Below are positions 2,203 to 4,627 of a stretch of DNA of 4,627 nt, one piece after another. Source of the stretch: a virus. Taxonomy: Duplodnaviria > Heunggongvirae > Uroviricota > Caudoviricetes. Position numbers and translations under genes: made by a program. Every line of letters starts with the position of its first letter. Positions within the stretch are counted from its first letter, which is position 1. The DNA lies in IMG/VR virus record IMGVR_UViG_3300029095_000166; one strand, given 5' to 3'. Under the pieces are notes generated by a model. That model was not told where the DNA came from and did not search any database. It saw nothing but the letters and a program-made list of their open reading frames with translations.

Positions 2203-2206
2203 GGAG
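2203..2206 (+). promoter_or_regulatory. Shine-Dalgarno-like GGAG for the side tail fiber gene
   Basis: GGAG lies 5 nt upstream of ATG 2212. Confidence 0.5.
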
Positions 2207-2211
2207 TGAAT

Positions 2212-4233
2212 ATGGCAGTACAGATTTCAGGCGTGCTGAAAGACGGTGCAGGAAAACCGATACAGAACTGCACCATTCAGCTCAAAGCAAAACGTAACAG
2301 CACCACGGTTGTGGTGAACACGGTGGCCTCAGAAAATCCGGATGAAGCCGGACGTTACAGCATGGATGTCGAGTATGGCCAGTACAGCGTTATCCTGCTG
2401 GTTGAAGGTTTTCCGCCTTCACATGCCGGGACCATCACCGTGTATGAGGATTCTAAGCCGGGGACATTGAATGATTTTCTGGGCGCTGCAACAGAAGATG
2501 ATGTTCGTCCGGAGGCACTGTATCGTTTTGAAAAGATGGTGGAAGAGGCGGCACGCAACGCTGAAGCCGCCTCTCAGAGCGCAGCGGCAGCAAAGAAATC
2601 CGAAACAGCAGCGGCATCGTCCAGGAACGCGGCGAAAACATCAGAGACGAATGCAGGTAACAGCGCGAAAGCGGCAGCTTCTTCAAAAACAGCCGCACAA
2701 AATGCAGCAACAGCGGCAGAACATTCAGAGACAAATGCCCGTGCGTCAGAGGAAGCCTCCGCAGACAGTGAAGAGGCTTCCCGCCGTAATGCAGAGTCAG
2801 CCGCTGAAAATGCCGGAATCGCCACCACAAAAGCGCGGGAGGCCGCAGCAGACGCAACAAAGGCCGGGCAGAAAAAGGATGAGGCTCTGTCGGCAGCGAC
2901 ACGAGCAGAAAAGGCGGCAGACCGCGCAGAAGCCGCAGCGGAAGTGACTGCAGAGCCCTATGCGAATATAGTGCCGCCGCTGCCTGATGTATGGATACCG
3001 TTTAACGATACACTGGATATGATTACGGGGTTTTCGCCATCATATAAAAAGATTGTTATTGGTGACGATGAAATAACAATGCCAGGCGACAAGATTGTTA
3101 AGTTTAAACGTGCTTCAACAGCAACGTATATTAATAAGTCCGGCCAACTCAAGCTTGCTGAAGTTGATGAACCGCGATTTGAGCGCGATGGCTTATTGAT
3201 TGAAGGACAGAGGACAAATTATCTGAGGAACTCAAATAAACCAGACTCATGGACTGTTCATTCCGCACTGAATAAAACATTTGGCACTGATAAACAGGGG
3301 TTCAATTATGCCACGGTGACACCCACGGAAAGTATAGTGGGAACAACAGGTGGCTATACTGTGCATGGTGTGGTTGCAGCAGACAGATTCCCGCTGGCAA
3401 GTGGTGAATGTTTCACTTTTTCGTGCCGGGTTAAAGGCGCTAAAGCACGATGCAGGTTAAGAGTTTCAGTTATTATTGGTGGAACAGATACCTTCTCTGC
3501 TGACTCTTATCTTGATCTGGATACCCGGATCGCAACAGTAAGCGGTAATACATCCCTTATAACAGCCAAAGCTGAACAACAGGGCGAGTGGACCTACTAT
3601 GAGGCCACTTATACAGCTAATACGGACATTGATACCGTTAACTGTGCTTTTTATATGACAAATAAAATAAGTAATGAGCCATTCTATGATGACTCAACAT
3701 TAACCATGACGACGCCGCAAATTGAACTGGGCAATACGGCATCGTCATTTATTGTAACTACAATGCCAACAACACGCGCAAGTGATGTGGTTACTATCCC
3801 CTCGGAGAATAACCTGTCAACACGGCCTTTTACGGTATTGTGCGAAGTAAGGAGGAACTGGAGTACACCGCCCAATGTTGCGCCAAGGATATTTGATGTT
3901 GGAGGGCACAGTATTGATGATAATTATTTATCGCTGGGGTTTGTTTCAACAGGAAAGATAAGCGCCAACGTAGGAATGGTTCAGCCACAAATAGCCGCAG
4001 ATGGAGAAAGGTTCATTGTGGGGGTGAGAGCTAAATCCGATTTATCAGTAAATGCAATATGCAATGGTAATTATACAACAAACCTTAATGGTAAAATATT
4101 TGGCATTACAGCAACATCGTACCGGTTTGGTGGGCAGACCGCAGCAGGAACGCGTCATTTGTTTGGACACATCAGAAATTTCAGAGTCTGGTTTAAAGAA
4201 TTAAATGACAGGCAAATAAAGGAGGCAGTATGA
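2212..4233 (+). CDS. stf: Side tail fiber protein, mosaic: lambda Stf-like N-terminal domain and Ala/Ser/Thr/Glu-rich shaft fused to a distinct C-terminal lectin-like receptor-binding module (674 aa)
   Basis: The N-terminus MAVQISGVLKDGAGKPIQNCTIQLKAKRNSTTVVVNTVASENPDEAGRYSMDVEYGQYSVILLVEGFPPSHAGTITVYEDSKPGTLNDFL closely matches my recollection of lambda Stf (orf401). I chose ATG 2212, preceded by GGAG, over the GTG at 2206 reported in the ORF track because Stf homologues begin MAV.ISG. A shaft rich in SETNA-like quasi-repeats follows (about 2540-2950). The C-terminal part (from about 2950) has no resemblance to the lambda Stf / T4 gp37-type distal region and ends with LFGHIRNFRVWFKELNDRQIKEAV, which resembles the terminal beta-strand motif of LamG / concanavalin-A-like jelly-roll domains. 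Stop TGA at 4231-4233. Confidence 0.88.
   Translation: MAVQISGVLKDGAGKPIQNCTIQLKAKRNSTTVVVNTVASENPDEAGRYSMDVEYGQYSVILLVEGFPPSHAGTITVYEDSKPGTLNDFLGAATEDDVRPEALYRFEKMVEEAARNAEAASQSAAAAKKSETAAASSRNAAKTSETNAGNSAKAAASSKTAAQNAATAAEHSETNARASEEASADSEEASRRNAESAAENAGIATTKAREAAADATKAGQKKDEALSAATRAEKAADRAEAAAEVTAEPYANIVPPLPDVWIPFNDTLDMITGFSPSYKKIVIGDDEITMPGDKIVKFKRASTATYINKSGQLKLAEVDEPRFERDGLLIEGQRTNYLRNSNKPDSWTVHSALNKTFGTDKQGFNYATVTPTESIVGTTGGYTVHGVVAADRFPLASGECFTFSCRVKGAKARCRLRVSVIIGGTDTFSADSYLDLDTRIATVSGNTSLITAKAEQQGEWTYYEATYTANTDIDTVNCAFYMTNKISNEPFYDDSTLTMTTPQIELGNTASSFIVTTMPTTRASDVVTIPSENNLSTRPFTVLCEVRRNWSTPPNVAPRIFDVGGHSIDDNYLSLGFVSTGKISANVGMVQPQIAADGERFIVGVRAKSDLSVNAICNGNYTTNLNGKIFGITATSYRFGGQTAAGTRHLFGHIRNFRVWFKELNDRQIKEAV
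2560..2950 (+). repeat. Low-complexity quasi-repetitive coding region (Ala/Ser/Thr/Glu-rich fiber shaft)
   Basis: Protein-level degenerate repeats (KKSETAAASSRNAAKTSETNAGNSAKAAASSKTAAQNAATAAEHSETNARASEEAS...) and DNA-level near-repeats such as tcagagacgaatgc (about 2640) and tcagagacaaatgc (about 2725). The composition bias leaves alternative frames on both strands open (spurious ORFs 2453..2902-, 2471..2947+, 2574..2828-). Confidence 0.6.
4220..4225 (+). promoter_or_regulatory. Shine-Dalgarno AGGAGG for the coupled small ORF
   Basis: AGGAGG lies 4 nt upstream of ATG 4230, inside the 3' end of the fiber gene. Confidence 0.55.
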
Positions 4234-4508
4234 AAGATTTAACTTTGAAATTTCCTGGTAACAGAGAGTTTAAATCCTTCCTGTCATCTCTTGACTGGGA
4301 GGAAGATGAAGACCTCCAGAATAAACTGTTAGTTGATGAAATTGGTTTCACCTACACAGAAACAGGGGTAACAGAAGAGGGAGAACCTGTCTGTATCCGG
4401 AATGACGGTTATTTTGTCAACATTCGCATCCTTGATGACGCGTTTGATGTTTCTGTATTCTCTGATTATGTTGTGGAGCTGGAAACACCGCTTCGTGAAT
4501 GGAGCTGA
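4230..4508 (+). CDS. Hypothetical small acidic protein (92 aa), translationally coupled to the side tail fiber gene; function unknown, candidate fiber accessory or chaperone
   Basis: The ATG at 4230-4232 overlaps the fiber stop TGA 4231-4233 (ATGA arrangement) and has a strong upstream AGGAGG. The ORF is 92 codons, AT-rich like the fiber C-terminal module, and strongly acidic (about 22 Asp+Glu against about 8 Lys+Arg, counted by eye). It does not match my recollection of Tfa family chaperones, which are about 190 aa. Confidence 0.65.
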   Translation: MKDLTLKFPGNREFKSFLSSLDWEEDEDLQNKLLVDEIGFTYTETGVTEEGEPVCIRNDGYFVNIRILDDAFDVSVFSDYVVELETPLREWS

Positions 4509-4520: not shown

Positions 4521-4627
4521 ATGGATATAAGCCCCTTACTTCATGCACTTTGTGCTGTGGCTGCGCAGGTACTGGTTGGTCTTTTTACCGGGAACTGGGC
4601 TTACGGAGCGATAGCCGGTTGTACGTT
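4521..4627 (+). CDS. Hypothetical hydrophobic (probably inner-membrane) protein, 3'-partial (first 35 codons only)
   Basis: ATG at 4521 with a strong AGGAGG upstream, starting 12 nt after the stop of the small acidic ORF. The translation MDISPLLHALCAVAAQVLVGLFTGNWAYGAIAGCT is dominated by hydrophobic and small residues, consistent with a transmembrane helix. The ORF runs off the window, so product identity is unknown. Confidence 0.5.
   Translation, partial: MDISPLLHALCAVAAQVLVGLFTGNWAYGAIAGCT

Follow-up and report, generated by a model that had tools for sequence, protein, structure and literature searches.

The lateral tail fiber of the T5-like phage IrisVonRoten (Bas32) includes a 'proximal' protein, Gp22, with a 'galectin-like' domain that 'could contribute ... 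as an additional RBD' (receptor-binding domain), and AlphaFold-Multimer models place a T-shaped distal fiber on Gp22 (PMC11990801). The RBPseg atlas lists a 'lectin-like head (D69)', used for binding, on BASEL fibers that include RBP_10 of EmilHeitz (PMC12143355). The head spike fiber of the Rhodobacter gene transfer agent (GTA) is an all-beta, two-lobed, lectin-like protein that binds capsule-bearing cells, and a fluorescently tagged version of the RcGTA spike fiber bound these cells far better than capsule-less ones (PMC10218006). The lateral fibers of T5-like phages and small siphoviruses recognize O-antigen as a dispensable primary receptor (PMC8594841). Here we analyze the side tail fiber gene (stf) in IMGVR_UViG_3300029095_000166, a stretch of 4627 bases (the window) that represents the tail end of a lambda-like E. 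coli prophage. Its product, Stf, combines a lambda-type anchor and shaft with an unrelated distal cassette, which is two beta-sandwich domains preceded by a conserved junction of about 90 residues. We consider it probable that this Jouyvirus-type, lambda-like Stf carries a glycan-binding lectin-type tip in place of a gp37-like tip and Tfa.

Domains and fold of the side fiber

The open reading frame (ORF) at 2206–4233 on the plus strand is intact and encodes 675 residues from a GTG at 2206. Translation likely starts at ATG 2212 behind GGAG, giving 673 residues, and the 673-residue database protein P0001 is 100% identical across the 427-residue query taken from the distal region (residues 249–675). 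The protein matches the PHROG 1419 profile with an E value of 1.6e-294. The gene and its parts are as follows.

2212–4233, plus strand: stf, side tail fiber gene (ORF with GGAG, then ATG 2212; P0001; PHROG 1419)
2212–2604, plus strand: tail-attachment domain of the lambda Stf N-terminal type, residues 3–133 (PF08400, 9e7m, orf-401)
2605–2949, plus strand: Ala/Ser-rich shaft, residues ~134–248 (lambda orf-401, 53% identity in its Ala/Ser-rich part)
2950–3225, plus strand: conserved junction segment, residues 249–340, the start of the swapped cassette (mean pairwise identity 78%)
3226–3735, plus strand: variable middle beta-sandwich domain of the GTA-head-spike-fiber type, residues ~341–510 (NF048003; all-beta model)
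3781–4221, plus strand: predicted C-terminal LamG/ConA-like (CBM40-like) jelly-roll domain, residues ~526–672

The N-terminal part is that of a lambda side fiber, as an initial annotation made from the DNA letters had proposed. Pfam phage_tail_N (PF08400) covers residues 3–133 (E 9e-69; 230 bits, cut-off 26.6). The lambda Stf N-terminus of known structure (PDB 9e7m, residues 1–94) matches residues 3–96 (E 3e-50), and BLASTP aligns lambda orf-401 with the first 158 residues at 74% identity. The shaft, which lies in a region of high GC and AT skew (2550–3000), is presumed from the fiber literature to be a trimeric helical rod. A search for tandem repeats in the shaft found none. Within 2453–2947, the other frames and the antisense strand also contain long ORFs (for example 2453–2902 minus and 2471–2947 plus), which look like by-products of the Ala-rich composition, comparable to lambda orf206b.

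The cassette begins at position 2950, the first base of residue 249. Its 427 residues have no similarity to lambda orf-314, the distal part of lambda Stf (best E 0.23), and the proposal that the last ~430 residues are unrelated to the lambda Stf/gp37-type end therefore stands. Peptidase_S74 (PF13884) gave no match at E <= 1 in the Pfam scan of Stf or in a scan of 54 cassette family members. Pfam scans of the distal region detected neither Caudo_TAP nor a fiber-repeat domain, and Caudo_TAP was not found in any of the ORFs of the window. Beta_helix and pectate-lyase domains were likewise not detected by the Pfam scans of the window Stf, which is modeled as beta-sandwiches. The distal region has thousands of homologs, so it is conserved coding sequence rather than a chance feature.

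The middle domain is identified by the NCBIfam model NF048003 ('phage head spike fiber domain'), which is modelled on the Rhodobacter GTA. This model covers residues 331–525 over positions 1–181 of 182 with an E value of 3.5e-18 and a score of 66.8 bits, above the curated cut-off of 36. A partial match to CBM_4_9 (PF02018) in the same domain spans only 42 residues (model positions 92–132 of 136; E 1e-4, 22–23 bits, below the cut-off of 25.9) and is only a hint that the middle domain resembles a carbohydrate-binding module (CBM).

Pfam did not detect the terminal domain in full-length Stf; it emerged only in a scan restricted to the C-terminal segment and in homologs. The final ~150 residues match Laminin_G_3 (PF13385) along the entire model (positions 4–151 of 151) with an E value of 6.7e-5 and 23.5 bits against a cut-off of 27.6. 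Matches at E <= 0.01 occur in 27 of the 54 cassette family members, and the homologs P0244 and P0256 (~36% identity) score 31.1 bits, above the cut-off. A sequence search of the PDB with the whole Stf had the lambda Stf N-terminus as its sole match; the distal part drew none. Foldseek comparison of the 427-residue AlphaFold model with the PDB yielded, at E values of ~1e-5, CBM40, paired LNS domains of neurexin, lectin domains of sialidases, and the binding domains of botulinum toxins, and the best fold matches are carbohydrate-binding modules, namely CBM40 and the CBM-type domain 4 of arabinanase. In the model, the terminal domain is a two-sheet jelly-roll of the ConA-like type, with beta-strands and a short terminal helix. 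The predicted local distance difference test score (pLDDT) is 75–95 for the middle domain and below 50 for the junction in the monomer model; the low junction score may reflect a segment that folds only in the trimer. An internal duplication as the origin of the two beta-sandwiches was considered and rejected, since hhalign of the middle-domain alignment with the LamG alignment matched only the 8 columns in which the two inputs overlap and detected no homology between the domains.

These data bear out a jelly-roll, lectin-type fold for the fiber end, which the initial annotation had taken from three motifs. All three are correctly placed: RTNYLRNSNKPDSWT is residues 336–350 (nucleotides 3211–3255), PQIELGNTASSFI is residues 504–516 (3715–3753), and LFGHIRNFRVWFKELNDRQIKEAV is residues 652–675 (4159–4230). 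The last one, read as the terminal strand of a LamG-type domain, does lie inside the LamG-like domain, but RTNYLRNSNKPDSWT and PQIELGNTASSFI instead mark the start and end of the GTA-spike-fiber-type middle domain. The single receptor-binding module that had been envisaged is thus correct as to a lectin-type head, but consists of two beta-sandwich domains and a junction.

Distribution and variation of the cassette

The cassette is a widespread, ordinary, and already catalogued tail-fiber end. Residues 249–675 alone match PHROG 1419 at profile positions 352–793 of 793 (E 3.4e-173), and NCBI already uses 'phage head spike fiber domain-containing protein' as a name for proteins of this kind. Of 5426 complete E. 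coli genomes, 517 (~10%) contain at least 80% of the cassette DNA, and tblastn found the cassette in 218 phage records. Among representatives of clusters at 50% identity, 1384 clusters match at E <= 1e-3 and 339 at E <= 1e-10, and in many of these the match runs through the full cassette, which is preceded by widely differing N-terminal regions. Full-length homologs occur in seven other phage lineages, which are six phage groups and P2-like prophages. The families that share the C-terminal region are T5-like phages, Drexlerviridae, Dhillonvirus, Vequintavirus, P2-like phages, and lambdoid phages, and the N-termini joined to the cassette are of the lambda type (PF08400), the T5 pb1/LtfA type, the Drexlerviridae, Dhillonvirus, and Vequintavirus types, and the P2 type (PF12571/PF03406). 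The cassette therefore ends fibers with five or more unrelated N-termini, in agreement with the domain swapping that had been suggested. The description of this end as non-canonical holds relative to lambda itself; otherwise, it is a common allele in many coliphages.

The window as a whole matches hundreds of E. coli chromosomes at ~97% identity. Further matches are the viable phages Lambda_2E9 (Jouyvirus), Lambda_ev058, and PhiR47_2, whose distal Stf protein is 98% identical. A literature search on Jouyvirus, the PhiR phages, and this Stf allele found no functional study.

Several copies depart from this pattern. In many E. coli genomes (H43–H53; L001:8222–10243), stf is interrupted by the insertion sequences IS4, IS5, or IS3, and in others a break within the Ala/Ser shaft leaves a pseudogene for the N-terminal part and a separate 'head spike fiber domain' ORF; prophage copies of stf are often decaying. 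E. coli Rosetta2-DE3 (B strain, H60) has a truncated cassette (query bases 572–1281, 98.6% identity), and the copy in E. coli B derivatives is a prophage remnant. The database protein P0241 joins a Phage_cap_E capsid N-terminus to the cassette on a 3-kb contig and is probably an assembly or gene-calling chimera.

Variation within the cassette was assessed in alignments with homologs from six other phage groups and then in a non-redundant set of 54 sequences, for which mean pairwise identities of the three parts were computed. The junction is the most conserved part, 52–86% identical to its counterparts in the seven other lineages. The middle domain has a mean pairwise identity of 46% with a minimum of 17%, compared to 78% and 61% for the flanking junction and terminal domain, and the window allele is only 22–31% identical to every sampled allele. 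This pattern fits a specificity determinant, which the middle domain is likely to be, judging from the alignments. The T5-like phage Stokescottia has a terminal domain 79% identical to that of the window. The difference between 22–31% in the middle domain and 79% in the terminal domain indicates that shuffling acts on single domains.

Downstream genes and the role of the fiber end

The gene order in the window is the 3' part of J, stf (2206/2212–4233), an ORF of 92 residues (4230–4508), and an ORF that starts at 4521. The two genes that follow stf are listed here.

4230–4508, plus strand: 92-residue acidic protein (phrog_1361), the constant partner of the cassette (ATGA overlap with the stf stop; AGGAGG at 4220–4225)
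4521–4627, plus strand, running off the window: start of a 97-residue hydrophobic protein (phrog_1443; full ORF at L001:10531–10824, E 2e-58)

The 92-residue protein matches phrog_1361 with an E value of 6e-40, and AGGAGG lies eight bases upstream of the ATGA overlap. A small ORF that aligns with it follows the cassette in all seven other phage loci fetched (28–51% identity), where it overlaps or abuts the fiber stop codon, and phrog_1361 was detected in four of the four that were scanned. The P2-like prophage has a 92-residue ORF at the same overlapping position. Searches of Pfam and the PDB gave no match for the protein, it shows no similarity to lambda Tfa, and no tfa follows stf. It is a candidate chaperone or adaptor.

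What comes after this small gene differs between loci. A distal fiber gene is next in the T5-like phages (L003, L005, L007), Drexlerviridae (L004), Dhillonvirus (L006), the lambdoid phage PhiR11_1 (L009), and the P2-like locus (L012). In the latter (L012:5001–9052), the cassette is fused to a P2-type N-terminus (PF12571/PF03406), and after it come the 92-residue ORF, a 303-residue distal fiber (Gp34_trimer), and a chaperone of the Caudo_TAP type; this myovirus locus is clearly organized as a proximal plus a distal fiber. The prophage, Lambda_2E9, and PhiR47_2 lack a distal fiber gene after the cassette and have phrog_1443 and sitDCBA instead. The 97-residue phrog_1443 protein has two hydrophobic, membrane-like stretches and occupies the site of the distal fiber gene of other phages. 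The sitDCBA genes come after phrog_1443 in the prophage (L001:10916–14365) and in Lambda_2E9 and PhiR47_2 (L010 and L011, both 6957–10406). The location of sitABCD, an iron/manganese transporter operon, within viable lambdoid phage genomes identifies it as phage cargo (a moron).

The account of the window phage that we regard as probable runs as follows. The fiber would be a homotrimer with a lambda-type N-terminal anchor and, at its end, each of the lectin-type domains in triplicate. The lectin-type domains would bind a surface polysaccharide (O-antigen, lipopolysaccharide core, or capsule) weakly and reversibly, concentrating virions at the cell surface and speeding adsorption ahead of the contact between the J tip and its outer-membrane protein receptor. 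Specificity would be set by the variable middle domain, and the 92-residue protein would help to fold or complete the fiber end in place of Tfa. Because no distal fiber gene follows, the lectin-type head would be the working tip in this phage; the viable phages Lambda_2E9 and PhiR47_2, which have the same fiber and no distal fiber gene, support this explanation. We infer glycan binding by the cassette from analogy with the GTA spike fiber and the O-antigen-recognizing lateral fibers.

Several observations weigh against this account. The model of the C-terminal domain has moderate confidence (pLDDT 68), and ligand-binding residues could not be mapped at 13–16% identity to CBM40 or LamG structures; identity to liganded structures is 9–16%. 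The literature searched yielded no binding experiment for this Stf or a close homolog. Because relatives plate on the rough strains E. coli C and K-12, the fiber is not essential on them. The stf gene is frequently broken by insertion sequences or split in E. coli genomes, and in six other lineages a distal fiber gene follows the cassette, which may therefore serve mainly as a docking platform. Finally, the fold matches include LamG/LNS, pentraxin, and clostridial-toxin Hc domains, which have proteins as well as sugars as ligands. The last point would also fit a head that binds an outer-membrane protein and not a glycan, as suggested for lambda Stf and OmpC; the use of OmpC by Ur-lambda Stf is reported in work cited in PMC11990801. 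We think a protein receptor rather improbable, given that the best fold matches are CBM40 and the CBM-type domain of arabinanase, that binding of the related GTA head spike fiber is capsule-dependent, and that lateral fibers of phage groups sharing the cassette are linked to O-antigen recognition. A ConA-like domain that is catalytic (a glycanase, a lyase, or esterase-associated) and degrades or modifies surface polysaccharide is very improbable, because the top matches are non-catalytic binding modules and the Pfam, NCBIfam, and PHROG matches include no enzyme family and no beta-helix depolymerase domain.

The cassette might instead be mainly a structural hub on which a distal fiber docks, perhaps via the 92-residue protein. 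The distal gene of the window phage would then have been lost or replaced by the phrog_1443/sitABCD cargo, and the head would be a leftover with little or no receptor function. In most other phages, the fiber with the cassette at its end is a proximal one that bears a distal fiber, and the cassette may therefore serve for more than receptor binding. The gene order of the T5-like, Drexlerviridae, Dhillonvirus, PhiR11_1, and P2-like loci agrees with a hub, as does the modeling of the IrisVonRoten distal fiber on Gp22, which is 43% identical (PMC11990801). The junction is the most conserved segment, as a docking surface would be, and the frequent disruption of the gene in E. coli genomes points the same way. 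On the other side, most database copies of the window-type fiber are intact (673–674 residues), as are those in viable phages without a distal fiber. The middle domain is a distinct and well-folded allele (pLDDT 75–95) that is not decayed, and a purely structural role does not easily account for the hypervariability of this domain among phages. We therefore judge a mainly structural function unlikely in the window phage, although the hub and receptor-binding roles do not exclude each other. A broader idea, which we offer tentatively, unites them: the cassette and its 92-residue partner would form a self-contained 'plug-in fiber end' in at least seven lineages that is both a glycan binder and a universal socket for distal fibers. 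In that case, phrog_1361 would be an undescribed assembly or adaptor class replacing Tfa, and the window phage would be a minimal version that uses the socket alone as its tip.

Upstream context and comparison with known systems

The C-terminal domains of J, identified by a Pfam scan, lie immediately upstream of stf. J appears as two ORFs (64–1332 and 1338–2153) because a run of 48 N at 1227–1274 falls inside the gene; relatives have a single J gene of 3483 nucleotides. A terminator-like hairpin at 2172–2200, with an 8-bp stem followed by TTTTTTATTT, lies after the J stop codon (2153) and ahead of the ribosome-binding site of stf; its identification is a consensus match only. Expression of stf may depend on read-through or on a promoter of its own.

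The cassette findings do not overturn current understanding. They do allow a better annotation: 'lambda-type N-terminus plus GTA-spike-fiber-type and LamG-type lectin-like head' is preferable to 'prophage tail fiber N-terminal domain-containing protein'. The building of chimeric Stf proteins is established, with 126 lambda-Stf chimeras described (bioRxiv 10.1101/2025.02.28.640725), and the portability of the cassette is useful for such designs. It is a naturally portable fiber end on lambda-, T5-, T1-, HK578-, rV5-, and P2-type fibers that brings its small partner gene with it. The most interesting loose end is the constant 92-residue partner together with the apparent double function of the cassette, tip on the one hand and socket for distal fibers on the other.

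The gene shares its position after J, the PF08400 N-terminus, and the Ala/Ser-rich shaft with the lambda stf of Ur-lambda (orf-401/orf-314). It differs from the lambda Stf/Tfa system in its unrelated distal ~430 residues, in the phrog_1361 gene that takes the place of tfa, and in the absence of lom between J and stf in the window. IrisVonRoten Gp22 is 43% identical over the whole 427-residue cassette (70/28/47% by segment), has a predicted lectin-type head, and is likewise followed by a small overlapping gene. Unlike the window Stf, Gp22 has a T5 pb1/LtfA-type N-terminus, and the 574-residue T-shaped distal fiber Gp24 follows it, whereas the window phage is without a distal fiber.

The RcGTA head spike fiber (rcc01080) and residues 331–525 of Stf have the family model NF048003 in common, and the two are likened through this model and not by direct identity. 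The spike fiber differs in that it is mounted on capsid vertices by a 10-residue N-terminal anchor and does not belong to a long trimeric tail fiber. The sialic-acid-binding CBM40 modules of NanA, NanJ, and the R. gnavus IT-sialidase and the LamG/LNS/pentraxin domains are only 9–16% identical to the window domain, and nothing points to sialic acid as the ligand of the window Stf.

The DT57C fiber LtfA/LtfB (PMC4728585, PMC10713586) resembles the proximal-plus-distal fibers in that a proximal fiber bears a second fiber and the lateral fibers recognize O-antigen. DT57C LtfA/LtfB as the same kind of fiber was rejected, because it ends in a self-cleaving chaperone (pfam13884) that is absent from the window Stf; cryo-EM of the DT57C fiber resolves only the N-terminus. 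The EmilHeitz copy of the cassette is 92.5% identical to that of LL12, and the LL12-type cassette is 33% identical to that of the window, which suggests that EmilHeitz RBP_10 is the fiber carrying an LL12-type cassette. This Vequintavirus fiber differs from Stf in its length of more than 1400 residues and its mounting on the baseplate. Its D69 is a C-terminal head with a beta-sandwich fold that takes the place of a Peptidase_S74 tip in fibers that are otherwise identical.

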